Source: Paracoccaceae bacterium
GTDB taxonomy: Bacteria > Pseudomonadota > Alphaproteobacteria > Rhodobacterales > Rhodobacteraceae
Length of the DNA: 64,000 nucleotides
Direction: 5' to 3'
Assembly: GCA_965198725.1 (NCBI GenBank)
Contig: CBDAPX010000001.1
Location: 915,966-979,965 of the forward strand
Notes under the pieces: generated by a model
Seen by the model: the letters and a program-made list of their open reading frames with translations, nothing else
Databases searched by the model: none
Told to the model about the DNA's origin: nothing
Position numbers and translations under genes: made by a program
Shown: in pieces, positions 13,262 to 60,581 of the stretch
Numbering within the stretch: the first letter of the stretch is position 1
Layout of the letters: each line of letters opens with the position of its first letter

Positions 13262-13302
13262 TGAACCGCCCCAGTTTTGGCGGAGACTATTGAGTTCGTA
13301 TT

Positions 13303-14202
13303 TCAAGCTGCGATTTTGTCTGACTTCAAGGCTTCTTCGTATCTCTCCTCGGCTTCGATTGGCGTGATGTACCCGAGTGGTTCAAGCAGGCGCTCTTTGT
13401 TGAACCAGTCCACCCATAGCAGGGTTTCCCATTCGACCTGATCCTTGGACTTCCACGGACCTAGTTGATTGATGACTTCGGTTTTGAAGAGGCCGATGAT
13501 CGTCTCAGCCAGTGCATTGTCATAGCTGTCACCAACGCTGCCGACGGATGGCTCCAGCCCAGCATCGGCCAACCGTTCTGTGTACTTGATCAACACGTAT
13601 TGGCTGCCGCGATCTGAATGATGGATCAGTTTCTCAGCGGGTCTGCGTGCGTGGATCGCCTGTTCAAGCGCATCTAAGACAAACTGCGTGTCCTGCGTTG
13701 TTGATGCCTTCCAGCCCACAATCCGGTTCGCGAAGGTATCAATGACGAACGCCACATAGACGAACCCGCGCCAGGTCGAGACGAACGTAAAGTCGGACAC
13801 CCACAGTTCGTTCGGCATTGAAGCCCTGAACTGGCGATTGACCTTGTCCAGCGGGCATTGATCCGCAGGTTGACCACAGGTGGTTTTGACCTTCTTTCCG
13901 CGCCGGACGCCTTGAATGCTAAGCTGGCGCATCAACCGTTCTACAGTGCAGCGAGCAATATCAATCTTCTCGCGATTCATCGCGTGCCATAGTTTGCGTG
14001 CGCCATAGACAGAACGGTTCTTCTCCCAAACATCCTTCATCGTTTTGCGCAGAAACTCATCCCGCTTGGCCCGGTCCGAGGCACGGTCGGGATCACGCTC
14101 GATGGCAATGCGTTTATAGAACGTCGAAGGGGCAATCTGGAGAACTCTACAGATCGGCTCGACCCCATGCGCCCCACGATGATCCTTGATGAAGGCAATC
14201 AT
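13303..14202 (-). CDS. IS3-family transposase OrfB (DDE integrase core)
   Basis: 299 aa; ...WVSDFTFV...HSDRGSQY...DNALAET... DDE/rve motifs; overlaps orfA stop in the -1 frame. Confidence 0.9.
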   Translation of the reverse strand: MIAFIKDHRGAHGVEPICRVLQIAPSTFYKRIAIERDPDRASDRAKRDEFLRKTMKDVWEKNRSVYGARKLWHAMNREKIDIARCTVERLMRQLSIQGVRRGKKVKTTCGQPADQCPLDKVNRQFRASMPNELWVSDFTFVSTWRGFVYVAFVIDTFANRIVGWKASTTQDTQFVLDALEQAIHARRPAEKLIHHSDRGSQYVLIKYTERLADAGLEPSVGSVGDSYDNALAETIIGLFKTEVINQLGPWKSKDQVEWETLLWVDWFNKERLLEPLGYITPIEAEERYEEALKSDKIAA

Positions 14203-14531
14203 TTGCGGAATGGGCGGTCGAGCTCCGCCTGAGCAAAATAAGCAGATGCCTTCTTCAGGATCTCATTTGCCTGACGCAACTGCCGGTTCTCGCGCTCAAG
14301 TTCTTTGATGCGATCCCGCTCTGCAGAGGTCACGCCATCGCGTTTGCCGGTATCCGCCTCGTGTTGCTTGACCCAGATACGAAGGCTGTCTCTGCTGCAC
14401 CCAACCTTCTGAGAGATCGACAAAAGTGCTGCCGATCTGCTCGTGTATTCGCTCTCGTGATCCAAGACCATCCGCACCGCTCGTGCGCGCAATTCCTCTG
14501 GATAACGTGTTCCGTTCTTTGTCTTTCCCAT
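14199..14531 (-). CDS. IS3-family transposase OrfA (HTH + leucine zipper)
   Basis: 110 aa; YPEELRARAVRMV..., ...ELERENRQLRQANEILKKASAYFAQ typical IS3 OrfA end. Confidence 0.9.
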   Translation of the reverse strand: MGKTKNGTRYPEELRARAVRMVLDHESEYTSRSAALLSISQKVGCSRDSLRIWVKQHEADTGKRDGVTSAERDRIKELERENRQLRQANEILKKASAYFAQAELDRPFRK

Positions 14532-14579
14532 GACCCAGTATCCTTACTTCTGGGTCTCCGCCAAACAAGGGGCGCTTCA

Positions 14580-15368
14580 GGTCTTAAAGCTCAACAGACT
14601 TCGGTGCAGCGCCAGTTAGAACTGATACAGAAAGAACTAGCCGATCAAACCACCCTGTTTGAACGTGGATTGGCGCAAGCGTCTCGAGTTTTGGCGTTAC
14701 AGCGGGAAGATGCCAATCTGGAAGGCAGTTTGGGAGAATTGATTGCAGGAGAAGCGCAGGCTGCCGGTCGAATTACCGAGATTGAGATCGAGATACTGAA
14801 GCTGGACTCACGCCGGCGCGAAGAAGCCATTACGCAGTTGCGTGATTTGCAATACAGAGAGCTGGAGCTTGCGGAAAACCGGCGGGCTCTCAAGGAACAG
14901 TTGAAACGGCAGGACATACGCGCACCGGTTTCCGGAATTGTCTACGGGCTGCAGTTCCAGACACCTAGGTCGGTTATTCGACCGGCCGATCCGGTCATGT
15001 ACATCGTCCCACAGGACCGTCCCTTGGTGATAGCCGCACAGGTGCAGCCAACTGACATCGATCAGCTTTACGTCGGCCAACAAGCCGTACTGCGCTTCAC
15101 AGCATTGGATCAAAGGCTTACCCCAGAACTCTTCGGAACAGTAACCCATATTTCGGCGGACGCTTTCGCTGAAGAAAACACGGGAGCGTAATTCTACCGT
15201 GCTGAGGTGTTTTTGAACGAGCATGAAACAGAAAAGTTGCCGGACGGCGCAGTGTTGATCCCCGGCATGCCGGTTGATGCATTTATCCGGACAGGTGACC
15301 GGTCGCCGCTGGATTACCTGACAAAACCCTTCACGGATTATTTTGTGCCCGCCTTCCGCGAAAGCTGA
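14580..15368 (+). pseudogene. HlyD-family T1SS membrane-fusion protein remnant (N-terminal part deleted, in-frame TAA at 15189-15191)
   Basis: Starts immediately after the IS right end inside the coiled-coil region; ...IRAPVSGIVYGLQ...; same frame continues after TAA as FYRAEVFLNE...IPGMPVDAFIRTGDRSPLDYLTKP (canonical HlyD C-terminus). Confidence 0.85.
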
Positions 15369-26543: not shown

Positions 26544-27512
26544 ATGGCGACATTCCGAAAGCTCCCCTCGGGCAAGTGGCAAGCCCAAATTGCCCGCAAT
26601 GGTATTCGCAAATCATCGAGCTTTGCAACCAAGCGCGAGGCCCAGGATTGGGCCGCGCGGCAAGAGTATCTTGTGACGAATGCCGAACCTCCCCAAACCA
26701 AACTGACACTCAAAGACGCCTTTGATCGCTACGCCCGCGAGGAATCACCCAAGCGGCGTGGTGAGAGATGGGAAGTGGTGCGCCTTGAGCGTCTGTCATC
26801 TGACAAGATTGCGGATAAGCGGCTGGCCGATCTTGAGCCTGCTGACTTTGCCGAGTGGCGGGATCGCCGCGCCAAAGAGGTTGCACCGGCCACTGTGCGC
26901 CGCGAGATGACGCTTATGTCATCGGTGCTGACAACGGCCCGCCGTGAATGGGGCCTGATCTCTCACAATCCTATCTCTGACATTCGCAAGCCCGCCTCAC
27001 CGCCGCCGCGAGATCGGCGTGTGTCTGCGGATGAGATCGATAAGCTCATCAAGGCGGGCGGCACGGACTTGTCCAAGGCCCAGGCCCGAGCCGTTCATGC
27101 GTTCCGATTTGCGGTGGAGACGGCTATGCGGGCCGGTGAGATCGTGGGGCTGACCGATAAGACGGTTGACCGGGATACGCGGGTGGCCACGTTGCCCAAA
27201 ACCAAGAACGGCACGGCTCGCAAGGTTCCATTGTCCACTGCCGCGCTCGGCCTCTTGGATGAGTTGCCCGAAACCGATGGCCCGCTGTTCGATCTGAGCA
27301 ATCAGCAGATCGATGCGATGTTCCGCAAGGCGCGGGATAAATCAGAGATTGAGGATTTGCGTTTCCACGATAGCCGCCATGAGGCGATCACGCGGCTGGC
27401 GAAAAAGGTGGATGTTCTGAGCCTGGCCCGAATGGTGGGGCACAAAGACGTTAAGATGCTGATGATCTATTATAACGAAACCGCCGAGGAACTGGCTCAG
27501 CGGCTGGACTGA
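26544..27512 (+). CDS. int: tyrosine-type phage integrase
   Basis: 322 aa; MATFRKLPSGKWQAQI... SAM-like N-domain; ...FHDSRHEAITRLA...VGHKD..ML..YY catalytic R..H.R..Y pattern. Confidence 0.9.
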   Translation: MATFRKLPSGKWQAQIARNGIRKSSSFATKREAQDWAARQEYLVTNAEPPQTKLTLKDAFDRYAREESPKRRGERWEVVRLERLSSDKIADKRLADLEPADFAEWRDRRAKEVAPATVRREMTLMSSVLTTARREWGLISHNPISDIRKPASPPPRDRRVSADEIDKLIKAGGTDLSKAQARAVHAFRFAVETAMRAGEIVGLTDKTVDRDTRVATLPKTKNGTARKVPLSTAALGLLDELPETDGPLFDLSNQQIDAMFRKARDKSEIEDLRFHDSRHEAITRLAKKVDVLSLARMVGHKDVKMLMIYYNETAEELAQRLD

Positions 27513-29904: not shown

Positions 29905-30771
29905 TTAGTGCATGATCGACCTTTGGTCCATCTTGACGACGGTTTCGGGAGCCGGTGGGCGGTAGCCTAGAGCACTGTGTGGTCGTTTCGTGTTGTAGTG
30001 TTTCCTCCATTCCTCAATCAGGATTTGTGCTTCGCGCAGGCTATAGAAGATTTCGCCGTTCAAGAACTCATCGCGGAAACGGGCGTTGAAGCTTTCGCAG
30101 TACCCATTCTCCCAAGGGCTGCCTGGTTCGATGTAAGCCGCCCTTGCGCCGACAGCCTTGATCCAGTCCTGCACGGCTTGCGCAACGAACTCAGGGCCAT
30201 TGTCGGAACGGATGAACGACGGGATGCCGCGCAGAATGAACAGGTCGCTCAGCACATCGATCACATTGCCTGAGTTGAGCTTGCGATCCACGCGTATGGC
30301 CAAGCATTCCCGACTGTACTCGTCGATGATGTTGAGTGTGCGGAAAGCTTTACCATCGTCGGTGCGGCAGTGGACAAAGTCGTAAGACCAGACATGATCG
30401 CGGCGCTCTGGCCGAAGCCTGACACATGATCCATCATTCAGCCAAAGCCGCCCTTTCTTCGGTTGTTTCATTGGCACTTTCAGCCCCTCTCGTCGCCATA
30501 ACCGTTCCACGCGCTTGTCATTCACATGCCAGCCAGCGTCTCTCAGTAGTGCCGCGATCCTACGATAGCCGTAGCGGCCATACTGCCGGGTCAGTTCGAT
30601 CATATCAGCCACTAAACGTTCTTCATCCGGGCGACCCGCAGGTACTTTGCGCTGTGTGGATCGATGTTGTCTTAGAACCCGGCATGCCCGACGCTCCGAG
30701 ATGTTCAGCTCAGCACGAACGCGATCAATACAGGCACGACGACGAGCGGGGCTCAGAAGTTTCCCTTTGCC
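29905..30771 (-). CDS. IS3-family transposase OrfB (made as OrfAB by -1 frameshift near 30760-30771)
   Basis: First ATG at 30612, but the frame is open upstream (..LSPARRRACIDRV...ERRACRVL..). DDE core ...WSYDFV..., SDNGPEF, ENGYCESFN. Confidence 0.85.
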   Translation of the reverse strand, partial: GKGKLLSPARRRACIDRVRAELNISERRACRVLRQHRSTQRKVPAGRPDEERLVADMIELTRQYGRYGYRRIAALLRDAGWHVNDKRVERLWRREGLKVPMKQPKKGRLWLNDGSCVRLRPERRDHVWSYDFVHCRTDDGKAFRTLNIIDEYSRECLAIRVDRKLNSGNVIDVLSDLFILRGIPSFIRSDNGPEFVAQAVQDWIKAVGARAAYIEPGSPWENGYCESFNARFRDEFLNGEIFYSLREAQILIEEWRKHYNTKRPHSALGYRPPAPETVVKMDQRSIMH

Positions 30772-33973: not shown

Positions 33974-34498
33974 ATGGGTGTTGAAATCCGCCTTCCCGAC
34001 GCGCCGGATTGGGGCAATCCGCATCTGGTGAGCTTTGAGCGGGGTGAGTTGCTCTATCGTGATGCCTCTCTAGCCGATGTGATCAGCCATGCGCGGGGGC
34101 GTCTGTGCTATCTGGCCACACCTTATTCTAAGGTCTGCGTCACCGACGATGGCGAGTGGAACCAGGTGGAAAGCCTGTTCTGTTCTGGCCGTGCCGCGCG
34201 ATGGTCGCGGGCTTTGGCCGTTGAGGGGATCACCGCGATCTCGCCCATCATCCAATCCGTTGAGATGGTGCATGTGGATTTTGACGAATGGCTTGATCCG
34301 CTGGATGCCAAGTTCTGGACCGATTGGTGTCAACCGCTACTGAATGCCTGCGGCCCTGTGATCGTGCCGCCGCTGGATGGCTGGCAGGAAAGCCTGGGCG
34401 TTTGGCAAGAGGCGCTGTTCGCGCTGCGCTCTAATCGGTCTGTGTTCCTCATCGATCCAAAAGAGGCTCCGCACCTGGCGTGGTGGTTGGATGAATGA
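33974..34498 (+). CDS. DUF1937 (nucleoside 2-deoxyribosyltransferase-like fold) protein
   Basis: ...RLCYLATPYSKV...GITAISPIIQS... matches the YLA(S/T)PYS...SPI pattern of DUF1937. Confidence 0.55.
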   Translation: MGVEIRLPDAPDWGNPHLVSFERGELLYRDASLADVISHARGRLCYLATPYSKVCVTDDGEWNQVESLFCSGRAARWSRALAVEGITAISPIIQSVEMVHVDFDEWLDPLDAKFWTDWCQPLLNACGPVIVPPLDGWQESLGVWQEALFALRSNRSVFLIDPKEAPHLAWWLDE

Positions 34499-35643
34499 GC
34501 GCGATCTTGCCGGATATTCAGATCGGGCCATGCCGCCTGATCCTGGGGAATTCGATTGAGGTTCTGCCCGAGGTAGGCGGTTTCGATCATCTCATTTCAG
34601 ATCCACCCTATGAGCAGGCGATGCATGACCTGCACAACAAGGCAGAGTTTCGGCGCAAGGACGGCGGGTCAGAGCGCAAGCATTTTGCATTTGCGGGTAT
34701 CGATGATTTGCGGCCTGGCCTGGTTCGATTGGTAGAGCAGCAGTGCAGCGGCTGGTTTCTGGCTTTCTGCACCGCTGAGGGTGTTGGAAACTGGCGAGCG
34801 GCTGTGGCTGAATGCCCTGGCCTCAAATTCAAAACCACCTGTGCATGGGTGAAACCTGATTGCACGCCTAAGCTCAATGGGCAGGGGCCTGCTGTCGGCT
34901 ATGAGCCGTTCATCACGGTTTGGGCCGGAAAGGGTCATGCGCGGTGGAACGCAGGCGGCAAGCGCGGTGTTTATCGGCACTTGGTCAACCCACCGGATCG
35001 GCATGGTGGCCACCCTACCGAAAAGCCTTGGCGGCTATTCTCGGAGCTTCTGACCGATTTTACCAAGCATGGGGAGATCGTTTGCGATCCATTCATGGGC
35101 AGCGGAACCACGTTGGTATCATGCGCAAAGCTCGGGCGCAAAGGCGTCGGGATTGAACTTGATCCTGAGTTCTTTGAGATAGCGTGCAAGCGCGTGTCGG
35201 ACGCCTATCAGCAGGCCGATCTATTCGTGCCCCCCCCGAAAAGCCCGTTCAGGAAGCCATGTCATTCGATGGCAAAAAGGGGGTGGCGTGATGGTTTACA
35301 GCCCCACAGCTTCGCGCAGAATGTCATTGGCTCGCGACTGCCAGCCCTTGCCGGATGCACGCAGGGCCTCAACCAGGTCAGCGTCCAGGCGGATCGAAAC
35401 GGCTTGTTTGGGTGTGTCCAGAGGAGGCCGCCCACGGCGCTTAATCTCCTCTTGGAGTTTACCTGCCAACTCCGGCAGGGCCTCAGTGAATGGCCGTGCG
35501 GTTTCCAGCGCCTCATCGGACAATTCAGGAGCCTCCACGGCGTCCCAATATGTTTTGGTGTATCCATTTTCAGCGGCGTGTTTGGGGTCAAATTCCTTCA
35601 TGGATTTCCCTTTCCTTTTTGCTGGCGGGACGCAGCGAGATAA
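34495..35643 (+). CDS. beta-class N6A/N4C DNA methyltransferase; as-read ORF extended by a C8 tract
   Basis: DPPY (motif IV) then ...CDPFMGSGTT (motif I), PF01555-like order. After C8 (35230-35237) the frame runs antisense through brnA. With 9 C it would end PPEKPVQEAMSFDGKKGVA-TGA at 35291. Confidence 0.8.
   Translation: MSAILPDIQIGPCRLILGNSIEVLPEVGGFDHLISDPPYEQAMHDLHNKAEFRRKDGGSERKHFAFAGIDDLRPGLVRLVEQQCSGWFLAFCTAEGVGNWRAAVAECPGLKFKTTCAWVKPDCTPKLNGQGPAVGYEPFITVWAGKGHARWNAGGKRGVYRHLVNPPDRHGGHPTEKPWRLFSELLTDFTKHGEIVCDPFMGSGTTLVSCAKLGRKGVGIELDPEFFEIACKRVSDAYQQADLFVPPPKSPFRKPCHSMAKRGWRDGLQPHSFAQNVIGSRLPALAGCTQGLNQVSVQADRNGLFGCVQRRPPTALNLLLEFTCQLRQGLSEWPCGFQRLIGQFRSLHGVPICFGVSIFSGVFGVKFLHGFPFPFCWRDAAR
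35296..35601 (-). CDS. brnA: BrnA antitoxin (CopG/RHH-like)
   Basis: 101 aa; ...RGRPPLDTPKQAVSIRLDADLVEALRASGKGWQSRANDILREAV is the BrnA_antitoxin signature. Confidence 0.8.
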   Translation of the reverse strand: MKEFDPKHAAENGYTKTYWDAVEAPELSDEALETARPFTEALPELAGKLQEEIKRRGRPPLDTPKQAVSIRLDADLVEALRASGKGWQSRANDILREAVGL

Positions 35644-35986: not shown

Positions 35987-36370
35987 ATGCTTGATGCTGC
36001 TCCCTCTAATGCCGTGGCACGCCGTAATGAGCCTGAGAAATTTCAGGTCTATGCGGCGTCTGAATTGCTGGCTGCGCCACCTTGGCGCGAGGGCATTTGC
36101 TTTTTGCCAGAATGTTCGCGGCCCTTCACGCCTGCGCGGTCCTGGCAGATGTATTGCTGCACCGCGTGCGAACGGGCGGGCACGGCAGAGATGCGCAAGT
36201 GGGGCCATCGCATGTCGCTGCCTCTGCTGACCTGGCGCATGGGAAAATACGAACAACAAGACACCGGCATTCGTGATCTCACCCGTGCCGCGCGGCGTTA
36301 TGTGACGCACGCGCAATCGGCATGGCTTGAGGATCGCAATCGCCGGTCAAAAACAGCGGAGGCAGAATGA
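35987..36370 (+). CDS. hypothetical protein with zinc-ribbon-like Cys cluster
   Basis: 127 aa; CFLPEC...YCCTAC. Confidence 0.45.
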   Translation: MLDAAPSNAVARRNEPEKFQVYAASELLAAPPWREGICFLPECSRPFTPARSWQMYCCTACERAGTAEMRKWGHRMSLPLLTWRMGKYEQQDTGIRDLTRAARRYVTHAQSAWLEDRNRRSKTAEAE

Positions 36371-36999
36371 TGGGGCAGCGCAAGTATCAGGACATTGAAA
36401 TTCACGGGGTGGTCTATCCCGATGCTAACGCGGCAGCGGCAGCGCTTGGTGTGACCGCTGGGCAGGTTCGCATGGCGGTGCGCAGAGGGCGGCTGGATGG
36501 TCTGGGCACGCGCCCTGCCTTGCGTCCTGTGACCATTCGCGGCGTCACCTATTCCAATTTCAGCGAGGCTGGAAAGGCCCTTGGCGTTCACGCGAACACG
36601 GTGCGGGCGGCGTATCGCAATGGCACATTGCATCGGGTTGGAACGGGCCGCGTTGGTCCCGAACCGATGCGGGTGCGGATCGCAGGGCAAGATTTTGAAG
36701 ATGTGAACGCAGCGGCGGCGCATTTTGGCGTGCAGCCTGGAACGGTCTATTCCGCGATCTGTGATGGTGATCCTGACCGCATTGCGCGGCCTGCGGTCTA
36801 CAATCCGTGGAAGTCCAAAGCCTTCACCATAGGTGGTGTAACCTTCCCTTCCATGCGTGCGGCAAGCCGTGCCTTGGGTTTCAAGGATGAGGAATACATC
36901 GCCAAGGCTTTGAAGCGAGGATCGCGGCGTGGTCGTGAGCGCATCTTGGCGGCGGCGATGAGTTATGTTGCCCAGGACAAGCAAGTGGAGATGGCGTGA
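36367..36999 (+). CDS. DNA-binding protein made of four tandem NUMOD1/HTH-like repeats
   Basis: 4x I.I.G..Y.....AA.ALGV....V..A...G: IEIHGVVYPDANAAAAALGVTAGQVRMAV / VTIRGVTYSNFSEAGKALGVHANTVRAAY / VRIAGQDFEDVNAAAAHFGVQPGTVYSAI / FTIGGVTFPSMRAASRALGFKDEEYIAKAL. Confidence 0.55.
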   Translation: MMGQRKYQDIEIHGVVYPDANAAAAALGVTAGQVRMAVRRGRLDGLGTRPALRPVTIRGVTYSNFSEAGKALGVHANTVRAAYRNGTLHRVGTGRVGPEPMRVRIAGQDFEDVNAAAAHFGVQPGTVYSAICDGDPDRIARPAVYNPWKSKAFTIGGVTFPSMRAASRALGFKDEEYIAKALKRGSRRGRERILAAAMSYVAQDKQVEMA

Positions 37000-49198: not shown

Positions 49199-52129
49199 AT
49201 GGATGACAGCGATCTTTTGATCCAGGCGGGGTTTTCCACGGCCAAAATGGAGGCCGAAACCCGCAAGGTCATTGCCAAATACGAAGAAGCCGCCAAGCGC
49301 TCTGCCAAGAAGTTTGATGAGGCGATGGCCAAGGTTTCCAACAATGAAACCCTCAAGGCCACCGCCCGTGAAATTGACCGCCTCTCGCGCAAGTATGATC
49401 CAGCCTATGCTGGTGCCAAGAAATACGAGCGCGGGGTGAAAGAACTGAACCGCGCCGTGGAGATCGGCGCGATCACCAACAAGGAATATGAGCAGGGCCT
49501 TGAGCGTCTTGTGCAGGATTTGGAGCGCGGCGGCAAAGGCGCGGGCAAGTTCGGCGCTGCAATGCGTCAAGGCAGTGGTGCCTCTCGTTCCTATGGTGGG
49601 GCCTTGCAAAATGTCGGGTTCCAGATCGGGGACTTTGCCACGCAAGTTGGCGCAGGCACATCTGCCACGCAGGCGCTTGGCCAGCAGCTTCCTCAATTGC
49701 TCGGAGCGTTTGGTGCCTTTGGTGCAGGTGCCGGTGCAGCGGCGGCAATTCTGATCCCGCTTGGCGCGGCGCTTTACAAGAACCTGACGGGTGCAGTTGA
49801 TCTGGAAGAGCAGATGAAAGCGCTCTCTGAGGCCACGGATGCTTATGTTTCAGTTGCTGAGGCAGCGGCTACACCTATCGAAACGCTGCGCGAGAAATAT
49901 GGCGATCTCGCGGATGAGATGGCCTCGGTTAATGGGCAGCTTGCAACCATGCTTGGTGCAGTTGCTGAATTACAGCTTGATCAGAGCTTTTCCAGTTTTG
50001 CCAATCAGTTTGGCGGATTTTCTGAAACTGTTGACCGGCGCGGCAGAAATGCTGGTCCTGGCGGCGTTTCTGAGAGCGAGTTTCAGCGCACCGTATCATC
50101 GGTTACGCGTGCATATGACGTTGCTCGCGACGATGCTGAGGCCATTGTTAGAGCGCTCAAGAATGTGAATGAGGCAGTGGGTGCAGAGCAACGGCTTGAT
50201 GCTTTGCATGAAATGCTTGCTATTTTCACCCGCGCGGCGGAGTCATCAGAACAACTGGTAGACGTTTTTTCTGGTGACATTGCTCGGATTCAGCAGTTGA
50301 TCGAAAGCACGTCTAAGCAGGTAGAGGCTAGCCTGACCGAAGAAGAGCGCCGCCGCGAACAGATTTTCGCAAAGTATGCCGAGCGCGAGCGTGAACTGGC
50401 TCAGTTGATCTATGATCGGGGAATTGCAGAGCAAGAACTACGGCAAGCTACTCTTGATGGCGACCTGGACCATATAAAAGCGTCTCGCGCGGTTATCGCT
50501 GGCATTGATGAAGAGATCGAACGCCTGACCGATGCTCAGGGCCGCGTCACCGATTTGACCGCTGAAACGGAAATTTTGATTGGGGCGTTGGAGCGTGTCA
50601 CATTTGATCCAGACAATGAGGTCTATCAACAAGCATTGAAGCTCGCTGCGGCAGTGGCCGATGCCGAGCAAAATGTTGGTGATCTTGACGACGCTGATTT
50701 GTCCAGCTTGGAGGCACGTCTGAACTTCCTAAAGGATGGGTTCGAGAGCCTGCGCAGTCTGGCGCAAGGGCTTGATGGTGATCTGTCCTTGGCTGCGCAA
50801 AATGCGGCGGCGGAATATGGTCGCTCACGCATCCAGGGCGAAACAATGCGGCGCAACGCTGTGTCAGGCAGTGCCATTGAAACCATCAAGCAGTTTGAGG
50901 GAATGCGCGTGTCCTATGAGGATGCTAACCGCGATCTGTTGCGCCGTGTGGGCGAGTTCCAAGACGGCATCATTGGTCAGATTGGCCGTGATCGTTTCAA
51001 CGGCTTCACAGAGGCGCAGCAAGCCTCGCTGACCTCCATTGCCTACAATTATGGCTCTCTGCCTGACCGCATCCTGCCTGCTGTTCGAGGTGGGACGGAT
51101 CAGGACATTGCAACTGCCATCGCGCGGCTCCAAGGCGATAACGATGGCGTTAATCGCAACCGCCGTCTGCAAGAGGCCTCGGCCTTTGGCAATACGGCGC
51201 TGGTGCAATCCGAAATCCAGCAGCAAAGCGAACGCCAACGGCTCTTGGAGCAAGAGGCCAAAGAACGTGAGCGGTTGCAGGATATTCGCACCAGCTATGC
51301 TGATCTCATGCGAACGCAGATTACCGATGCAGAGTTTGAAAACAGCCTGATCGGGAAATCAGCCGAGGAACAAGCGCGGCTCAGGGCTGAATACCTGCTG
51401 ACGCAAGGTGCCAAGCGGCGCGGGATCGATCTGAATGAAAAGATCGCGGGTTCCGAGGAAACCTATGGCGAGGCGATCAAGCGCACCGCTGCCGCGCTGG
51501 CAGAGCTGGACGTGGTGCAACAGGAATTGCAGTCACGCCAGGAAGAGGCCGAGGCCAGCACGCGGCGCATGGAACAGGCGCAGAACTCGCTCAAGCAAGG
51601 GCTGATTGATGCGATTGTGGAGGGCAAGAACTTCTCGGACGTTCTGGGAAATGTGGCCAAGATGCTGGCCAAGGCGGCATTGGAGGCGGCTCTGTTTGGT
51701 AAGAATGGTCTGTTCAGCGGCCTCGGTGGCGGTGGTGGCGGATTGCTGGGCGGTCTGTTTGACGCATTGTTTCCTAGTGCGAATGGCAACGTTTTCTCAG
51801 GGGGACATCACGTCACGGCATACGCCAACGGCGGCGTGGTTGGAGGGCCAACCTACTTTCCGATGAAAGGTGGGCAAATGGGGCTCATGGGCGAGGCTGG
51901 ACCGGAGGCTATCATGCCGCTTACGCGCCTGCCCAATGGCAAGCTCGGCGTCGCATCTTCTGGGCAATCAGGTGTCTCTGTTACGTTCTCACCTGTGATT
52001 GATGCGCGTGGTGCTGATGCCGAGGCAGTGGCGCGGCTGGAATCGGCCATGCAGCGCGCGCAGGCTGAATTCAAGCCGCGTGTGATCGAGACAATGCGCG
52101 AGGCAGGCAAAAGGAACATTCAGGTATGA
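49199..52129 (+). CDS. tail tape measure protein with embedded lysozyme-like segment
   Basis: 976 aa, coiled-coil rich, G-rich hydrophobic blocks (GAFGAFGAGAGAAAA; GLGGGGGGLLGG); position. Confidence 0.85.
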   Translation: MDDSDLLIQAGFSTAKMEAETRKVIAKYEEAAKRSAKKFDEAMAKVSNNETLKATAREIDRLSRKYDPAYAGAKKYERGVKELNRAVEIGAITNKEYEQGLERLVQDLERGGKGAGKFGAAMRQGSGASRSYGGALQNVGFQIGDFATQVGAGTSATQALGQQLPQLLGAFGAFGAGAGAAAAILIPLGAALYKNLTGAVDLEEQMKALSEATDAYVSVAEAAATPIETLREKYGDLADEMASVNGQLATMLGAVAELQLDQSFSSFANQFGGFSETVDRRGRNAGPGGVSESEFQRTVSSVTRAYDVARDDAEAIVRALKNVNEAVGAEQRLDALHEMLAIFTRAAESSEQLVDVFSGDIARIQQLIESTSKQVEASLTEEERRREQIFAKYAERERELAQLIYDRGIAEQELRQATLDGDLDHIKASRAVIAGIDEEIERLTDAQGRVTDLTAETEILIGALERVTFDPDNEVYQQALKLAAAVADAEQNVGDLDDADLSSLEARLNFLKDGFESLRSLAQGLDGDLSLAAQNAAAEYGRSRIQGETMRRNAVSGSAIETIKQFEGMRVSYEDANRDLLRRVGEFQDGIIGQIGRDRFNGFTEAQQASLTSIAYNYGSLPDRILPAVRGGTDQDIATAIARLQGDNDGVNRNRRLQEASAFGNTALVQSEIQQQSERQRLLEQEAKERERLQDIRTSYADLMRTQITDAEFENSLIGKSAEEQARLRAEYLLTQGAKRRGIDLNEKIAGSEETYGEAIKRTAAALAELDVVQQELQSRQEEAEASTRRMEQAQNSLKQGLIDAIVEGKNFSDVLGNVAKMLAKAALEAALFGKNGLFSGLGGGGGGLLGGLFDALFPSANGNVFSGGHHVTAYANGGVVGGPTYFPMKGGQMGLMGEAGPEAIMPLTRLPNGKLGVASSGQSGVSVTFSPVIDARGADAEAVARLESAMQRAQAEFKPRVIETMREAGKRNIQV

Positions 52130-53316: not shown

Positions 53317-53748
53317 ATGATCCGGCAAGCTGTCGATGCTGACCGCCCGAACATGGTTCGGATGGGGCGGGATTTCGTGTGCGCGTCTGGTTTGCCTCTG
53401 CCCTTTGATGCGGCATGGGCAGATCGGTCGCTGGCCGGGCATATGGCGCAACCTGACCGACTGGCGTTGGTGCTGGAACTTGATGGCGCAGCGCGCGGCA
53501 TGCTGTGCGCCGCGCAGGTCCAGTCACCGCTGGCCCCTGTGCGCGTGGCATCCGAATTGGTGTTTTGGATCGATCCGCCTGCGCGTGGCCGATGGGCGAT
53601 GAAAATGATCTGCGCCTATGAGGCGTGGGCGAAAGAACAGGGTTGCGCCTTGGCCAGTTTGGCCACGGTCGGAGCCAAAGGCGCGGATGCGCTTTATCGG
53701 CGGTGCAGTTTTGCGCCTGCCGAACGTCACTTCATGAAGGTTCTCTGA
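53317..53748 (+). CDS. GNAT-fold acetyltransferase-like protein inside tail module
   Basis: 143 aa; ...VFWIDPPARGRWAMKMICAYEAWAKEQGC....L......A..LY.R..F resembles the GNAT beta4-alpha3 acetyl-CoA loop. Confidence 0.5.
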   Translation: MIRQAVDADRPNMVRMGRDFVCASGLPLPFDAAWADRSLAGHMAQPDRLALVLELDGAARGMLCAAQVQSPLAPVRVASELVFWIDPPARGRWAMKMICAYEAWAKEQGCALASLATVGAKGADALYRRCSFAPAERHFMKVL

Positions 53749-56700
53749 TGGCAGTTTTCACAGCGATTGCGACCGCGATTGGCATTGGCGGCACGTTCCT
53801 TGGAACGCTGTTTGTCGCGGGCCTGAAAACCCTTGTGGGCATCGGTCTGAACAAGCTGGCCATGAAACTGGCCGGGAAAAAACAGGGTGATGGTTCGCAG
53901 TTTTCCGTTAAAAGCCAACTGCAGCGCGGAGCGGACCTGCCGCAATCCTTCCTGATCGGAAAGTGCGCAACCGCCGGTTCGCTGACCTATGCCAACACAT
54001 GGGGTGAAGCGGGTGGCACACCGAACGCCTATCTGACGATGGTGATTTCGCTCAGTGACATTCCGGTGCAGTCACTGGACGGCATTTGGGTCAATGGCGA
54101 AGCGGGCACCATTGGTGCAACCGCCCATGCTGATTATGGGTTCCCGGTCAAAGAGTTCCACAAGGATGGGAAAGATCATCTATGGGTGAAGTTCTTTGAC
54201 GGCACCCAGACGGCGGCTGATAGCTATCTGGTGAACACGGCGTCGAACGCGGAACGCCCATGGGATGCCAATGCCATCGGTCACGGCACGGCATACGCTG
54301 TGATGACGGCCCGGATCAATCAAGACCTGTTCAACGGCTTTCCATCCTTCCTGTTCGAACTGACAGGCGCGCGGTTTTACGATCCTTCCAAGGACAGCAG
54401 TGTCGGTGGCGTGGGCGCGCAGCGGTGGAGCGATCCGGCGACATGGGGCGGCGATGGTGATCTGTTGCCAGCGGTCCAGCTTTATAATCTGTTTCGCGGC
54501 ATGCAATTTGGGGACCGCTGGTTCTACGGCATGCAGGCCACCACCGCAGAACAGATGCCTGTGGCGCATTGGATTGGCCAGATCAACAAATGCCGCTCTT
54601 TGATTGCGGCACAAGGCGGCAATGAGCCAAAGTTTCGGTCGGGCGGCGAAATCGCTGTGGGCGCGCCGATTGCCGATGCGATGGAAGCGCTGCTGGATGC
54701 GTGTCAGGGCCGCATTACGGAATCGGGCGGTGTCTACAAGCTGTTCGTGGGTCATCCCGAAACAACCGTTGCGTCCTTCAGTGATGACGACATCCTGTCG
54801 ACTGAAGAGCAGTCATTCACACCGTTCTTTGGTCTGGCGGATACCGTCAACGGCGTGAACGCCAAGTATCCTGACCCCGATCAGGGCTGGCAGATTGAAA
54901 CCGCGCCACCGCTGAACAATTCCGACTATGAGGCCGAAGACGGTGCGCGACGGCTGATGGTCGATGTGCAGTTTGATCTTGTGCCCTACGCAGAGCAGGT
55001 GCAGCGCCTGATGCTGGCATCGCTCAATGAAGCCCGTCGCGCCCGCCGCCACACGTTCACGTTGCCGCCACGGTTCTGGGCGTTGGAGCCGGGTGACGTG
55101 GTTGAATGGACCAGTGCGCGCAATGGCTATGATGCCAAGCTGTTCCGTGTCGATGGGGTTCTGGACCAGCCCAATGCGGATGTGGTTGTCGATCTGACAG
55201 AAATTGACCCGACCGATTATGACTTCGACACGAATGTAGATTTCACACCTGTCGGGGGCGGATCGGTCACAAGCCCGATTTATCCGCCGCAGACGATTGC
55301 GGGCTGGACGGCGCAAGCCTCTTCGGTGCCGGATTCCACAGGGCTTGGCCGTCTTCCAGCGATCATGATCACATGGAATGGTGATGTTGATGATGTCGCT
55401 GCGGTGCAGGTGCGTGTTCGCGTCAAGGCGACTGGGGCTGTGGTGTTTTCGGGGCGCTTTGATGACGTGGTTGCGGGCACGGCGCTCATTGCCGAAGGCA
55501 TTCTGCCTGCGACTGAATATGAGGTTCAGGGGCGTTATATCCCGCGCAGCCCGCGCGATGTCGCGTGGTCTGACTGGTTGACCGTTATGACGCTGGATTT
55601 GCGTTTGGGCATCACAGATTTAGCGACGGAGGTTGGGCAGGCAATTTCCGATGCTCAAGCGGCGGCGGATGGCGCTGCTGCGGATGCGACCCAAGCCCTA
55701 CAGGATGCAGCGGATGTGCAGGCTGACCACAACGCGCTGACCAATGATTTCACCGGAACGCTGAACGCGGCGTTTTCGCAAAGGGATGCTGGTATCGCTG
55801 CAGCGCAGGCGGCGGCTGATGATGTGCAGGCTGATCATGATGCGCTGGTTGCTGGCTTTACCGGCGGCACGATTGAAGGGGCGATTGAAGCCCTGCGCGC
55901 AGAGAATGAGGCCAATATCGCGCCGCTTGGGGCATCTGTCTTGCGTGAGCCGCGCAGCCTCTGGTCGTGCAACGTGCATGTGGCCCGGCCTGATCTGGTG
56001 AAGCCTGCTGTGACCACGGGTCTGTTCATCACCGATGACGCAGATTTCGGGGAGTGCTTCGAATTTGGCGGGGTTTACAACACCAATCTTGGCCCAGCCT
56101 ATCCGGTCGAATTTGACCCGAACCGGGTCTACCGTATCACCGCCTGCTATAAGGTGGTTGATGATAATGGCGGCGCAGGGGTGCGTTTGCACCTTGGCGT
56201 ATCGACCCAAACGGGCACAACGCTTGTTCAGTCAAACATCCAGTCCGAGTTGCACAGCCCTTGGCTTCTGGTTGCCGATGGCCCGCAAACTTCGGTGCGC
56301 TATGTGTCGGGCGATGCGGCGGCGCTGGACGCCTATGGCATTGCCGGTTCTGACCGTATTGTCCTGACGGGGTCTGCATCGGCCAACAAGCTCTATCCCC
56401 AGCTTCGACAAAACAGTCGTGGTTCAACCAGCGGCAAGGTTCGGGTGGCCAGCATTGAAGTGGTCGATGTCACCGAAGCGCTGTCGGGCGTGAATGCCCT
56501 GCGCACAGAATTACAGAGCAATATCGACGGGGTCAGTGCCACACTGGCCAATGACTATTACACCGCTGTCGCCACCGATCAGGCCATTTCTGCGGCACAG
56601 CAGACCTTGCAGTCGAATATCGACGGCGTTGCCTCAGACCTGCAGACAAATCACTACACAATCGCCCAAACCGATGGTGCGATCAGCGCGGCCACCACAG

Positions 56701-59700
56701 CGCTGCAGGCGCAGATGGAATCGCCATCCGGGTCCATTGGGTCGCTATCTGCCACGTTGACCAGCGACTATTCTACTACGGTGCAGATGGATCATGCGAT
56801 TTCCGCCGCACAGACCGCGCTGCAATCCAGCATTGATGGCGTCTCTGCCGATCTGTCGAACAACTACTACACTTCGGTTCAGGTTGACGGCGCGATTTCG
56901 ACGGCCCAGACCACATTGCAGGCGGACATTGATGATGTCTTCAGTGATCTGGCGGACGCCCTGCCATCTGACTTTTCTGAGCAGGGCCGGTTCTGGACCG
57001 AAAGCATTTCGGGTGCGACGGCAGCAACGGGTGATGTCGATGCCAATGTGTCCTTTGTCACAACGGCCAACGATGGTCCGATTTGCCGGATTGATATTTC
57101 CACCACTGTGGGGGCGAGCAACCATATCGCCCCGCGTGGCCGTCTGCCTTATGTCGTGGGCCGCAAATACAAGGTCACTGTCACAGCCCGTCTGACCGGC
57201 GTTTCCAGCCTGGGCGATGGTCGGGCGTTCAACATCCAGTTTCGCGGTTTGAATGGCAGATACGGTTCGGTGTCGGGTGCGTGGAGCACATTCCATCCGT
57301 CCTTCGCTTCGGTCGATACATGGGAGGTCTTCACCCATGAATTTGAAGCTACCGATCAGGGCGCATGGGCCGACATTGCGCATTTACTGCCCTTTGTCTA
57401 CCGCTTGAGTTCCTATGTGCGAGCCGGTGCCTATTTGGACATCAAGTCCATTGTCATTGAAGATGTGACCGAAGCGGGCAGCATCGCATCGAACCTGCAG
57501 CAGAATTATTCGACCACGGCGCAGATGGATCAAGCCATCGCGCTTGCCCGGACCACGTTGCAATCGAGCATCGACGGTGTCGCGTCGGACCTGTCAAACA
57601 ACTACTACACCGAAGCCCAGACGGGCGCGGCGATCACTTCGGCCACCACAGCGCTGCAATCCAGCATTGATGGCGTCTCTGCCGATCTGTCGAACAACTA
57701 CTACACTTCGGTTCAGGTTGACGGCGCGATTTCGACGGCCCAGACCACATTGCAGGCGGACATTGATGATGTCTTCAGTGATCTGGCGGACGCCCTGCCA
57801 TCTGACTTTTCTGAGCAGGGCCGGTTCTGGACCGAAAGCATTTCGGGTGCGACGGCAGCAACGGGTGATGTCGATGCCAATGTGTCCTTTGTCACAACGG
57901 CCAACGATGGTCCGATTTGCCGGATTGATATTTCCACCACTGTGGGGGCGAGCAACCATATCGCCCCGCGTGGCCGTCTGCCTTATGTCGTGGGCCGCAA
58001 ATACAAGGTCACTGTCACAGCCCGTCTGACCGGCGTTTCCAGCCTGGGCGATGGTCGGGCGTTCAACATCCAGTTTCGCGGTTTGAATGGCAGATACGGT
58101 TCGGTGTCGGGTGCGTGGAGCACATTCCATCCGTCCTTCGCTTCGGTCGATACATGGGAGGTCTTCACCCATGAATTTGAAGCTACCGATCAGGGCGCAT
58201 GGGCCGACATTGCGCATTTACTGCCCTTTGTCTACCGCTTGAGTTCCTATGTGCGAGCCGGTGCCTATTTGGACATCAAGTCCATTGTCATTGAAGATGT
58301 GACCGAAGCGGGCAGCATCGCATCGAACCTGCAGCAGAATTATTCGACCACGGCGCAGATGGATCAAGCCATCGCGCTTGCCCGGACCACGTTGCAATCG
58401 AGCATCGACGGTGTCGCGTCGGACCTGTCAAACAACTACTACACCGAAGCCCAGACGGGCGCGGCGATCACTTCGGCCACCACAGCGCTGCAAGCAGCAA
58501 TGGAAGCGCCAAGCGGGTCTATCGGCAGTCTGTCTGCAACCCTGACCAGCGACTATTACACTGGTGTTCAAACCGATGGCGCGATCAGTGCCGCTGTGAC
58601 CACGCTGGAAGCGACGTTCGGGCCGTCCGCGCTCAGCAACGGCTGCATTCAAGACCCGACTTTGTCAGAGCAAGACGGGACAAAATGGACCCGCTGGTCA
58701 AGCGGTGGAACGCTCACGTTCTCAGATAATCAGGTCTATCCAACTGGGAAGAGTGCGCGCTTCGTCTGTGCGTCTGGCGACAATAGCGGCCTATATACAG
58801 CTTCGCATCGGGCCACATGGATCGGCGCAGAAAATCTGGACGCCTATGTCGTTGAGGTTGATTTCACCTTGAATTCGGGAAGTCTGAGCGGGGCCGGGGT
58901 TCGGGTGGATTGGGACAAAACGACAGGCGAACGCACCACACCGATTGCGCTACAGCACATGCAGGTAACTGGCACGACAGGATTTGTGCAACGTGCGTCG
59001 GCGGTGTTCTTGAAGCCCTCGAATTTTGCGGGCACGTTTGTTGATCACGATCTATACCTCTTTGCGAATTTTTGGGGCCTTCCGAATTCGCCAAAGGCTG
59101 CGAAAGACATTACCTTCCATCGCTGTTTCATCCGCCCCGCAACCCCGGAAGAAACGGGTTCCGGCATTCTGGCCGACACGCTGAACGCAGAGATCACCGA
59201 CATCAAGGGGCTGGATGTCGATGCTAGCACAGCCTTCGGCACTTTGATGCAGCAGCTGCAGGTGAATGCGGGCGGTACCAGCGCGACCATCACCAACCAC
59301 GCATCCGCCGTGGCCGAACTAAATGGCTTCAGTTCGGCCTTCGCAGGCGTGACCGTTGACACCAATGGCGGCAATATCGCGGGCTTGCGGGCAACGTCCT
59401 TCGCCAACCCGGATGGGTCGGGCAATGGTGTGCTGGAACTGTTGGGGGATGTGGTGGCCGAAGGCACACTGTCCACCAATAAGCTGGTTGTCGGTCTGGG
59501 CCGCAATCTGCTGTCAAACACGGATTTCAGCGACGGGCTACAAGGGTGGATTAGAACGGGCGGTTCCGGTAGCGGTGCAACCGCGACCTTGTCGCTGCGT
59601 CCGCCGGGTTCATGGGCTGGTGCATATTTTCCGGTTCTGCAGCTTTACCAAGGCTCGTCTGCAAGCGACGGGTATCGAGATGTCGAACATCGCCCGCATC

Positions 59701-60581
59701 TGACTGACGGTAGTGTTTCCGTTGGTGTGCCCGTGGAAGCCGGGCAATGGCTGGAAGCCAGTGTGAAAGCCTCGATCCATCGGTGTGTTTTTGAATTGCG
59801 CATTCGGTTTCTGGATGCGTCCGGCGCGCATCTTGCGTGGTCGGGCGTTATTGCAAGCGGCAATGGCGCGACATCGTCTTCGACGGACCCAGAACTATGG
59901 CCGGTGTATTGGGGGAAGGCTCTGGCACCTGCGGGTGCGGCCTACGCGACGGTTCATTATCGCAAGTTGGCCACTAATACGGGTTCGAACAGTTATCTGT
60001 TCATCCATAAGCCACAGCTTGCGGTTTCGCATGCAAGTGCGACCCAGCCCGCACCCTACAGCCCCGGTGGCACCACGCTGATTTCCGGCGACAAGATCAT
60101 GACTGGTGCTATCACGGCAGAAAGCGCCATTCTGGCCAGTGCCAGCGTGGTCGAAGCGAACATTCAGGATCTGGCCGTGTCCACCCTGAAGATCAAGGAT
60201 CAGGCCGTCACTATTCCCGTCTATGTGCAGGACAACGTGCTTCAGAACATCCACAGCACAACAGACTGGGTGACGGTCATCAGCGCGGTGATGGACCGGG
60301 AAGGCTATGCCACGGCGTTGCAGTTCACCGCCCAGATCGACGGTTATGGCGATGGCAACCTGATGTTCGGTTTCGCGCGCAACGGCGGGCATTTCAACAA
60401 TGGCTTCACCCAGCATATCGCAGGCAACGGGTCGCAAACCAATGTGACAATTTCGACAGTGGACACAAACACAGGCACCGGCCCGACCACCTACAGTGTT
60501 CATTGTCGCCGTGTCAGCGGCCTGAACAGGCATGGCCGCGTGTTCAAGAAGTTCCTGTCGGCACACCAGTTCAAGAAATAG
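53748..60581 (+). CDS. giant host-specificity / tail fibre protein (2277 aa)
   Basis: ATG overlaps GNAT stop (TGATG). N-terminus resembles RcGTA g15/lambda J-type phage-tail_3 domain, followed by 32-aa LQSxIDGVxxDLxxNYYT repeats alternating with about 190-aa beta-sandwich-like modules. Confidence 0.85.
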   Translation: MAVFTAIATAIGIGGTFLGTLFVAGLKTLVGIGLNKLAMKLAGKKQGDGSQFSVKSQLQRGADLPQSFLIGKCATAGSLTYANTWGEAGGTPNAYLTMVISLSDIPVQSLDGIWVNGEAGTIGATAHADYGFPVKEFHKDGKDHLWVKFFDGTQTAADSYLVNTASNAERPWDANAIGHGTAYAVMTARINQDLFNGFPSFLFELTGARFYDPSKDSSVGGVGAQRWSDPATWGGDGDLLPAVQLYNLFRGMQFGDRWFYGMQATTAEQMPVAHWIGQINKCRSLIAAQGGNEPKFRSGGEIAVGAPIADAMEALLDACQGRITESGGVYKLFVGHPETTVASFSDDDILSTEEQSFTPFFGLADTVNGVNAKYPDPDQGWQIETAPPLNNSDYEAEDGARRLMVDVQFDLVPYAEQVQRLMLASLNEARRARRHTFTLPPRFWALEPGDVVEWTSARNGYDAKLFRVDGVLDQPNADVVVDLTEIDPTDYDFDTNVDFTPVGGGSVTSPIYPPQTIAGWTAQASSVPDSTGLGRLPAIMITWNGDVDDVAAVQVRVRVKATGAVVFSGRFDDVVAGTALIAEGILPATEYEVQGRYIPRSPRDVAWSDWLTVMTLDLRLGITDLATEVGQAISDAQAAADGAAADATQALQDAADVQADHNALTNDFTGTLNAAFSQRDAGIAAAQAAADDVQADHDALVAGFTGGTIEGAIEALRAENEANIAPLGASVLREPRSLWSCNVHVARPDLVKPAVTTGLFITDDADFGECFEFGGVYNTNLGPAYPVEFDPNRVYRITACYKVVDDNGGAGVRLHLGVSTQTGTTLVQSNIQSELHSPWLLVADGPQTSVRYVSGDAAALDAYGIAGSDRIVLTGSASANKLYPQLRQNSRGSTSGKVRVASIEVVDVTEALSGVNALRTELQSNIDGVSATLANDYYTAVATDQAISAAQQTLQSNIDGVASDLQTNHYTIAQTDGAISAATTALQAQMESPSGSIGSLSATLTSDYSTTVQMDHAISAAQTALQSSIDGVSADLSNNYYTSVQVDGAISTAQTTLQADIDDVFSDLADALPSDFSEQGRFWTESISGATAATGDVDANVSFVTTANDGPICRIDISTTVGASNHIAPRGRLPYVVGRKYKVTVTARLTGVSSLGDGRAFNIQFRGLNGRYGSVSGAWSTFHPSFASVDTWEVFTHEFEATDQGAWADIAHLLPFVYRLSSYVRAGAYLDIKSIVIEDVTEAGSIASNLQQNYSTTAQMDQAIALARTTLQSSIDGVASDLSNNYYTEAQTGAAITSATTALQSSIDGVSADLSNNYYTSVQVDGAISTAQTTLQADIDDVFSDLADALPSDFSEQGRFWTESISGATAATGDVDANVSFVTTANDGPICRIDISTTVGASNHIAPRGRLPYVVGRKYKVTVTARLTGVSSLGDGRAFNIQFRGLNGRYGSVSGAWSTFHPSFASVDTWEVFTHEFEATDQGAWADIAHLLPFVYRLSSYVRAGAYLDIKSIVIEDVTEAGSIASNLQQNYSTTAQMDQAIALARTTLQSSIDGVASDLSNNYYTEAQTGAAITSATTALQAAMEAPSGSIGSLSATLTSDYYTGVQTDGAISAAVTTLEATFGPSALSNGCIQDPTLSEQDGTKWTRWSSGGTLTFSDNQVYPTGKSARFVCASGDNSGLYTASHRATWIGAENLDAYVVEVDFTLNSGSLSGAGVRVDWDKTTGERTTPIALQHMQVTGTTGFVQRASAVFLKPSNFAGTFVDHDLYLFANFWGLPNSPKAAKDITFHRCFIRPATPEETGSGILADTLNAEITDIKGLDVDASTAFGTLMQQLQVNAGGTSATITNHASAVAELNGFSSAFAGVTVDTNGGNIAGLRATSFANPDGSGNGVLELLGDVVAEGTLSTNKLVVGLGRNLLSNTDFSDGLQGWIRTGGSGSGATATLSLRPPGSWAGAYFPVLQLYQGSSASDGYRDVEHRPHLTDGSVSVGVPVEAGQWLEASVKASIHRCVFELRIRFLDASGAHLAWSGVIASGNGATSSSTDPELWPVYWGKALAPAGAAYATVHYRKLATNTGSNSYLFIHKPQLAVSHASATQPAPYSPGGTTLISGDKIMTGAITAESAILASASVVEANIQDLAVSTLKIKDQAVTIPVYVQDNVLQNIHSTTDWVTVISAVMDREGYATALQFTAQIDGYGDGNLMFGFARNGGHFNNGFTQHIAGNGSQTNVTISTVDTNTGTGPTTYSVHCRRVSGLNRHGRVFKKFLSAHQFKK
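56817..58493 (+). repeat. perfect 834-bp in-frame tandem duplication (2 copies + 9 bp) inside fibre gene
   Basis: 56817-57650 and 57651-58484 read identical by line-by-line comparison; identical antisense ORFs at +834 offset in the ORF track. Confidence 0.9.

Follow-up and report, generated by a model that had tools for sequence, protein, structure and literature searches.

In-frame tandem duplications of 1.8 kb arose in the 6.6-kb tail-fibre gene of the Enterococcus phage EfV12-phi1 during coevolution with its host, and MinION reads showed from 0 to 4 or more extra copies of the segment (PMC6365445). The tail proteins of crAssphage carry tandem carbohydrate-binding BACON repeats that were built by sequential duplication (PMC6949934). 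In this work we have analyzed a stretch of 64,000 nucleotides (the window) from a Paracoccaceae bacterium (assembly GCA_965198725.1, contig CBDAPX010000001.1, positions 915,966 to 979,965 of the forward strand), in which a prophage gene encoding a J-like baseplate hub and central tail fibre protein (53745-60581, + strand, 2278 amino acids (aa) from its ATG) contains two identical head-to-tail copies of an 834-bp segment. We consider it likely that one structural and functional unit of the central tail fibre has genuinely been duplicated, in tandem and in frame, and that this happened very recently in evolutionary terms.

The likeness to EfV12-phi1 is found in the kilobase scale of the duplication (1.8 vs 0.83 kb), in its being in-frame and head-to-tail, in the size of the tail-fibre gene (around 6.6-6.8 kb), in the location of the repeat beside a carbohydrate-binding domain, and in the identity of the copies, so that dosage or length is changed and not sequence diversity. 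By contrast, only in EfV12-phi1 was the emergence of the duplications watched under host resistance, together with a proven heterogeneity of copy number and a gain in infectivity, whereas the locus described here is known from sequence alone. EfV12-phi1 is also a lytic myovirus of a Firmicute with no domain recognized in its repeat, whereas the window holds a siphovirus-type prophage of an alphaproteobacterium, with a unit that would comprise exactly one domain similar to carbohydrate-binding modules (CBM) plus its linker. With crAssphage the locus shares arrays of beta-sandwich domains of carbohydrate-binding type in tail proteins, the domain family of the window forming arrays of 2-19 copies, but the families are different, the module of the window being CBM4/9/16/22-like in its predicted fold and without a Pfam match. 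Moreover, crAssphage has old and diverged repeats, whereas the pair in the window shows zero divergence, with its founding junction still visible. Regarding lambda gpJ and T5 pb3, the N-terminal third of the protein carries Phage-tail_3 and aligns to T5 pb3, and the gene follows an open reading frame (ORF) at the tape-measure position and small tail genes; unlike them, the protein of the window is much longer, with a modular C-terminal fibre of five putative beta-sandwich modules on 32-aa helical repeats, and its gene has a GNAT acetyltransferase gene immediately upstream.

A perfect in-frame tandem duplication

Direct string comparison of positions 56817-57650 with positions 57651-58484 (+ strand) gave 0 mismatches in 834. 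The period of 834 runs exactly from 56817 to 58493, in such a way that a third unit is begun and abandoned after 9 bp, GCGCTGCAA (Ala-Leu-Gln, 58485-58493, +), which are also found at 56817-56825 and 57651-57659 and mark the recombination site. Numbering the protein from M1 at position 53745, the unit starts on a codon boundary ((56817-53745)/3 = 1024) and comprises 278 codons, with copy 1 spanning aa 1025-1302 and copy 2 spanning aa 1303-1580. The ORF stays open through both copies, and its C-terminus is common with that of the relatives and conserved to the last residues. Consequently, the two base-for-base identical copies, the first 9 bp of a third one and the frame-keeping length of 278 codons that had been proposed in the initial annotation were all confirmed. 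A repeat scan showed that the 834-bp pair is the sole direct or inverted repeat of at least 60 nt within the window, so that chance is excluded as its origin. Tandem Repeats Finder did not report the 834-bp repeat because the longest period that it considers is 500. Antisense ORFs were found at 56745-57383 (-, 212 aa) and at 57594-58217 (-, 207 aa), one within each copy, which are probably artefactual and due to the G+C richness of the coding strand.

Each unit contains, in this order, a 32-aa repeat (LQSSIDGVSADLSNNYYTSVQVDGAISTAQTT), a truncated repeat (LQADIDDVFSDLAD), a globular domain of 174 aa (ALPSDF...VTEAG), a 26-aa half repeat (SIASNLQQNYSTTAQMDQAIALARTT) and a further 32-aa repeat, that is, one 174-aa domain and around 104 aa of linker. 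The two full 32-aa LQSSIDGV repeats per unit that had been annotated are present, to which the truncated and the half repeats have to be added, and the length of around 190 aa assigned before to the globular module has to be corrected to 174 aa. The domain, named B, is encoded at 56958-57479 in copy 1 (B1, aa 1072-1245) and at 57792-58313 in copy 2 (B2, aa 1350-1523), both on the + strand and identical to each other, with a predicted beta-sandwich fold of CBM4/16/22-like type.

The junction of the duplication

In the deduced single-copy ancestral sequence, the left site, at the end of a 39-aa repeat, reads ...CAGACC GCGCTGCAA TCCAGC..., and the right site, at the end of the last 32-aa repeat, reads ...ACCACA GCGCTGCAA GCAGCA.... 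The recombining sites share 9 exact bp only, with flanks that match at 30 of 60 positions upstream and at 23 of 60 downstream, and the DNA identity among the 32-aa linker repeats is 50-72%. Because exact homology is limited to 9 bp within flanks around 50% identical, the founding event is better described as microhomology-mediated than as an unequal crossover of RecA type between long homologies; the 9 bp are observed, and from them we infer the mechanism. Thus, the junction does fall in the linker repeats, as had been annotated, at a boundary between two of them, but the repeats did not provide long homology usable for the unequal recombination that had been proposed, as just the 9 bp are shared.

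According to this model, one illegitimate event would have joined two copies of GCGCTGCAA placed at the ends of two different linker repeats, either through replication slippage or template switching, or through short-homology recombination between sister or concatemeric genomes, and it would have duplicated 278 codons, corresponding to one domain B and around 104 aa of linker. Both sites occupy equivalent positions of the linker repeat (between Ala-Leu-Gln and Ser or Ala), and the new joint, ...SATTALQ-SSIDGV..., resembles a native joint between repeats. As the break points lie at the same repeat phase, the frame, the repeat register and the downstream domains were left untouched. After the founding event, the two 834-bp copies would constitute a substrate for homologous unequal crossing-over, leading to expansion or contraction, and the copies, if retained, would diverge as the older arrays of the domain family have done. 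A long perfect direct repeat is expected to be deleted or expanded at appreciable frequency.

Relatives of the fibre and of the duplicated domain

Searches at the nucleotide level with megablast against phage records gave no match, and tblastn of the unit against the same records detected one Vibrio phage only, with 25.6% identity. A word-indexed protein search with the unit gave a single match (31%), and an exact-protein look-up found neither the tail protein nor the 976-aa product of the ORF at the tape-measure position on record. Among representative genomes one Roseovarius locus was detected (48%), lacking the B module; among viral contigs 13 loci were found, the B domain being present in none; and peptides specific for the module had no match in metagenome contigs.

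The nearest phage was found in a Logan contig (L015), in which the genes, GNAT among them, follow the same order and the one at the tape-measure position matches TMP_2 weakly. Its tail protein (P0002) is 87% identical over aa 2-676 and 50% identical over the last 430 aa or so (aa 1854-2278 of our protein align with aa 1424-1845 of P0002), and the middle is entirely different. These conserved ends around an unlike middle support that the middle of the fibre is a mosaic hot spot. Two further proteins, P0005 and P0007 (Tritonibacter mobilis), have a single B-type domain (33-38% identity) followed by collinear C, D and C-terminal regions, with aa 1349-2256 of our protein corresponding to aa 699-1563 of P0005 (36.6%) and aa 1634-2140 to aa 966-1474 of P0007 (47%). 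As both are collinear with one B, the single-copy state is likely the ancestral architecture, judging from these alignments.

The 214-aa domain region was used as the query of an exhaustive HMMER search (E <= 1e-3) to collect the family of domain B, and 62 representative clusters at 50% identity were obtained, many of them corresponding to giant proteins with several matched stretches. Among the 78 domain-bearing proteins, 42 have one copy, 17 have two, 10 have three and 9 have from 4 to 19, so that 36 of the 78 hold between 2 and 19 copies. The best identity between copies of the same protein ranges from 22% to 91% across the family, P0166 with a tandem pair at an offset of around 220 aa and around 86-91% identity being at the upper end, and the protein of the window is alone at 100%. 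The presence of multi-copy arrays at 22-91% identity across the family suggests that our locus is the zero-divergence, youngest stage of a duplicate-and-diverge process that is common in this protein class. Within the family (proteins P0122-P0181), long arrays in giant proteins are frequent, for example in P0132 (4870 aa, 19 copies), P0124 (3790 aa, 8 copies) and P0122 (3443 aa, 7 copies). The B-domain family looks like an uncatalogued family of CBM4/9-like tail-fibre domains.

Internal repeats of at least 80 aa were also scored by tiling in 121 J-like homologues, where they span from 25 to 98% identity. The same pair of repeats, of around 229 aa and placed 500 aa apart, was seen in P0016, P0018, P0019 and P0022, which are tail proteins of Agrobacterium vitis prophages and a related metagenome-derived cluster. 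This pair is 98% identical in P0016 and 73-78% identical in P0018, P0019 and P0022, a difference suggesting that one lineage has undergone gene conversion or has duplicated the segment again.

Predicted fold of the duplicated domain

When the whole unit was modelled with AlphaFold from its sequence alone, the predicted local distance difference test (pLDDT) was 45 and the model was unusable. AlphaFold2 run on an alignment of 18 homologous sequences gave a pLDDT of 70 and a predicted template modelling (TM) score of 0.71, and showed a sandwich core made up of beta strands only, after which a helix follows. The linker segments were predicted as helical in both models, at low confidence. When the model was compared with the Protein Data Bank (PDB) by Foldseek, the top matches were a CBM16 (2zey, E 3.6e-6, TM-score by target 0.62), a CBM4 (1gu3, 5.5e-6) and a CBM4-2 (4bj0, 8.6e-6); a CBM22 (4xup) was also found, the CBM matches having E values from 4e-6 to 1e-4, and a chain of the phi812 baseplate scores well too. 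Against the predicted viral structures of BFVD, the top matches included proteins labelled as tail-fibre, receptor-binding, 'CBM-cenC' and 'galactose-binding' among uncharacterized ones. At the sequence level, 2 of the 18 aligned members of the family matched Pfam CBM_4_9 (PF02018), with a best E of 7.4e-5. The best-supported reading of these models is that domain B is a CBM4/9-like domain of lectin type, and the proposal in the initial annotation that the duplicated module binds a receptor is plausible in view of this predicted CBM-like fold.

Identity of the gene and organization of the fibre

The protein matches Pfam Phage-tail_3 (PF13550) at aa 309-472 (66.6 bits, with a cut-off of 23) and the 'tail fiber protein' group phrog_5616 over aa 3-715 (E 2.5e-201), and it is homologous to the T5 pb3 baseplate hub at around aa 291-516 (8hqz_A, E 2.5e-8; 7zhj_b, E 6.8e-6), all of which agrees with its earlier description as a host-specificity gene. 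NCBIfam gave no match for the tail proteins. Homologues of the J-like protein were found in Roseovarius, Tritonibacter, Sedimentitalea, Leisingera and Rhizobiales. The mechanical list of ORFs places the start of the 2278-aa gene at a GTG at 53625, and the true start is almost certainly the ATG at 53745, as the homologues begin with the same residues, MAVFTAIATAIG. The genes upstream encode the small and the large terminase subunits, and the order from there is large terminase, portal, S49 protease, HK97-type capsid, the ORF of 976 aa at the tape-measure position (49199-52129, without a Pfam match of its own), two small ORFs, GNAT and the J-like gene, with a lysozyme gene downstream of the latter. 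Further genes encode an integrase (26544-27512) and a DNA methylase (34495-35643). The Phage-tail_3, phrog_5616 and T5 pb3 homologies, together with this gene order, support that the product is a J-like tail-tip and host-specificity protein, of the lambda J/T5 pb3 class, from an HK97-like siphovirus prophage of a Rhodobacterales host, as judged by homology.

The conserved N-terminal hub region (53745-55889, +, from aa 1 to around 715), which corresponds to the phrog_5616 match, shows besides its similarity to P0002 an identity of 47-64% to the other relatives. The C-terminal two thirds of the protein constitute the fibre, which according to the models would consist of CBM-like beta-sandwich domains in the order A, B, B, C, D on helical 32-aa repeats. 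Module A (55956-56600, +, aa 738-952) is matched by the profile hidden Markov model of the B family (E 1.4e-5) and is an old and highly diverged paralogue of domain B, so that the fibre already held an ancient duplication of the same kind. The linker repeats upstream of the duplication were located by regular expression and translation (56511-56819, +) and include R1 and R2, of 32 aa each, starting at aa 923 and 955, and R3, a 39-aa variant starting at aa 987, the end of which supplies the left microhomology; the 32-aa repeat that starts at aa 1026 is already the first element of unit 1. Downstream of the duplication, the region 58494-60581 (+) begins with a 39-aa linker variant (aa 1582), continues with module C, module D and the C-terminal domain, and is collinear with the relatives that have a single B.

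The 39-aa linker variants (LQAxMExPSGSIGSLSATLTSDY...) are located at 56703-56819 and at 58488-58604 (+), in such a way that they bracket the duplicated block. Their DNA identity is 68%, and they may be the remnants of an earlier and larger block duplication.

Other features of the prophage and its flank

The GNAT acetyltransferase gene (53317-53748, +; Pfam Acetyltransf_1, E 3e-6) is flanked by the small tail genes and by the J-like gene, overlaps the start codon of the latter, and is kept at the same position in the nearest phage contig (9615-10001 of L015). An acetyltransferase within a block of tail genes is unusual, and the modification of virion proteins or of the receptor would be guesses as to its role.

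An insertion sequence (IS)-type transposase ORF with rve and rve_3 integrase core and HTH_21 domains was found at 29905-30612 (-), between the integrase and the early genes, and the prophage may have been inactivated or rearranged by the insertion of this IS. The ORF at 36367-36999 (+) shows weak NUMOD1 and I-TevI-like DNA-binding motifs, below the Pfam cut-offs or, for I-TevI_DNA-bd, at the cut-off, together with helix-turn-helix motifs and with no nuclease domain detected; it may be the remnant of a homing endonuclease or a regulator of the early region. No single-strand-annealing recombinase of phage type was recognized among the ORFs scanned in the early region. In the host flank, an IS3-family transposase region (13257-14580) is around 87% identical to elements on plasmids of Phaeobacter piscinae and Roseovarius, and a plasmid search with this flank gave IS3 elements as the only matches. 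Together with the homologues of the J-like protein, this region, the best clue to the lineage, places the host among the alphaproteobacteria of the roseobacter group.

Discussion

The age of the duplication can be approached from the identity of its copies. If a resident prophage is assumed to acquire around 1e-9 to 1e-10 substitutions per bp in each generation, the lack of any difference over 2 x 834 bp would bound its age only to below around 1e6 to 1e7 host generations. The duplication is therefore recent on an evolutionary scale, and a laboratory origin need not follow. A perfect direct repeat of 834 bp is expected to be unstable, which points to an age far below this bound, to selection that favours two copies, or to expansion and contraction that still go on.

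Several points weigh against this interpretation of the locus. The copy number is taken from the assembled contig and not from reads, and no near-identical relative was found in the phage records, representative genomes, viral contigs, metagenome contigs and protein collection, in such a way that the only relatives pointing to a single-copy ancestor are those at 33-38% identity. Regarding function, the confidence of the structural model is moderate (pLDDT 70), its TM-scores are modest (0.44-0.48 by query and around 0.6 by target) and the module from the window matches 0 Pfam families, and we infer carbohydrate binding, the trimeric state and the effect on adsorption alike. Finally, an IS-type transposase is located in the early region of the prophage, which may or may not be active.

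The perfect identity over 834 bp exceeds the length of short reads, a short-read assembler could not have counted the copies directly, and the collections searched hold no independent copy of the sequence to corroborate the count, all of which would fit a mis-resolved tandem in a genome that has one unit, or at least three. We regard such an assembly artefact as improbable, as assemblers usually collapse perfect tandems or break at them, and an extra in-frame copy within a long contig is rarely invented. Furthermore, the 9-bp microhomology is biologically sensible and lies at a boundary of repeat phase with the ORF intact, multi-copy arrays of the domain are common in nature, and the window is free of other suspicious repeats. 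A diversity-generating retroelement or a site-specific cassette, for which a host-specificity gene would be the typical target, is practically excluded, because the copies are identical and in tandem instead of adenine-mutagenized template and variable repeats, inverted or other long repeats are absent from the window, and neither a reverse transcriptase nor an invertase was found among the subset of prophage ORFs scanned.

Somewhat less improbable than an artefact, though still unlikely, would be an older duplication whose copies have been kept identical by gene conversion or by contraction and re-expansion, that is, a standing and dynamic polymorphism of copy number. Identical direct repeats of 834 bp are a good substrate for unequal exchange of RecA type, and the 98% identity of the Agrobacterium vitis pair in P0016, against 73-78% in P0018, P0019 and P0022, could reflect homogenization. 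In populations of EfV12-phi1, from 0 to 4 or more extra copies were held at once (PMC6365445). However, neither the adjacent linker repeats, at 50-72% DNA identity, nor module A, at E 1.4e-5 to B, have been homogenized, the identity stops precisely where the microhomology lies on either side, as expected from a single founding event and not from patchy conversion tracts, and no relative was found that shows the polymorphism. We find it about equally doubtful that the number of B domains in J-like tail fibres of alphaproteobacterial prophages works as a rapidly reversible and selected switch of valency and length, in which unequal exchange would take the locus from one copy to two or three and back and so track the thickness of the host capsule or lipopolysaccharide, the window showing the expanded state and not the outcome of a neutral single event. 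A recent in-frame duplication thus stays as our preferred explanation.

Tandem duplication in tail fibres and tandem arrays of carbohydrate-binding domains are already documented, and the present case is incremental to them. What stands out here is the readable founding junction, a unit that would correspond to exactly one CBM-like domain with its stalk, and a domain family without a Pfam model. Should the protein form trimers, as the hubs of lambda J and T5 pb3 type do, the virion would have six B domains instead of three and a longer fibre, with 104 helical residues at 0.15 nm each adding around 15 nm, plus the domain itself. More B domains or a longer fibre would raise the avidity for a polysaccharide receptor on the cell surface, or the reach towards it. 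Isogenic phages with one and two copies, which recombination could readily yield if the prophage can be induced, would show whether the valency and length of a CBM-like module affect adsorption or host range in a marine roseobacter phage. The locus thus provides an unusually clean time-zero example of the growth of a modular receptor-binding fibre, with its 9-bp founding junction still readable, and the later stages can all be seen elsewhere in its domain family, where the identity falls from 91% to 22% and the copy number rises to 19.

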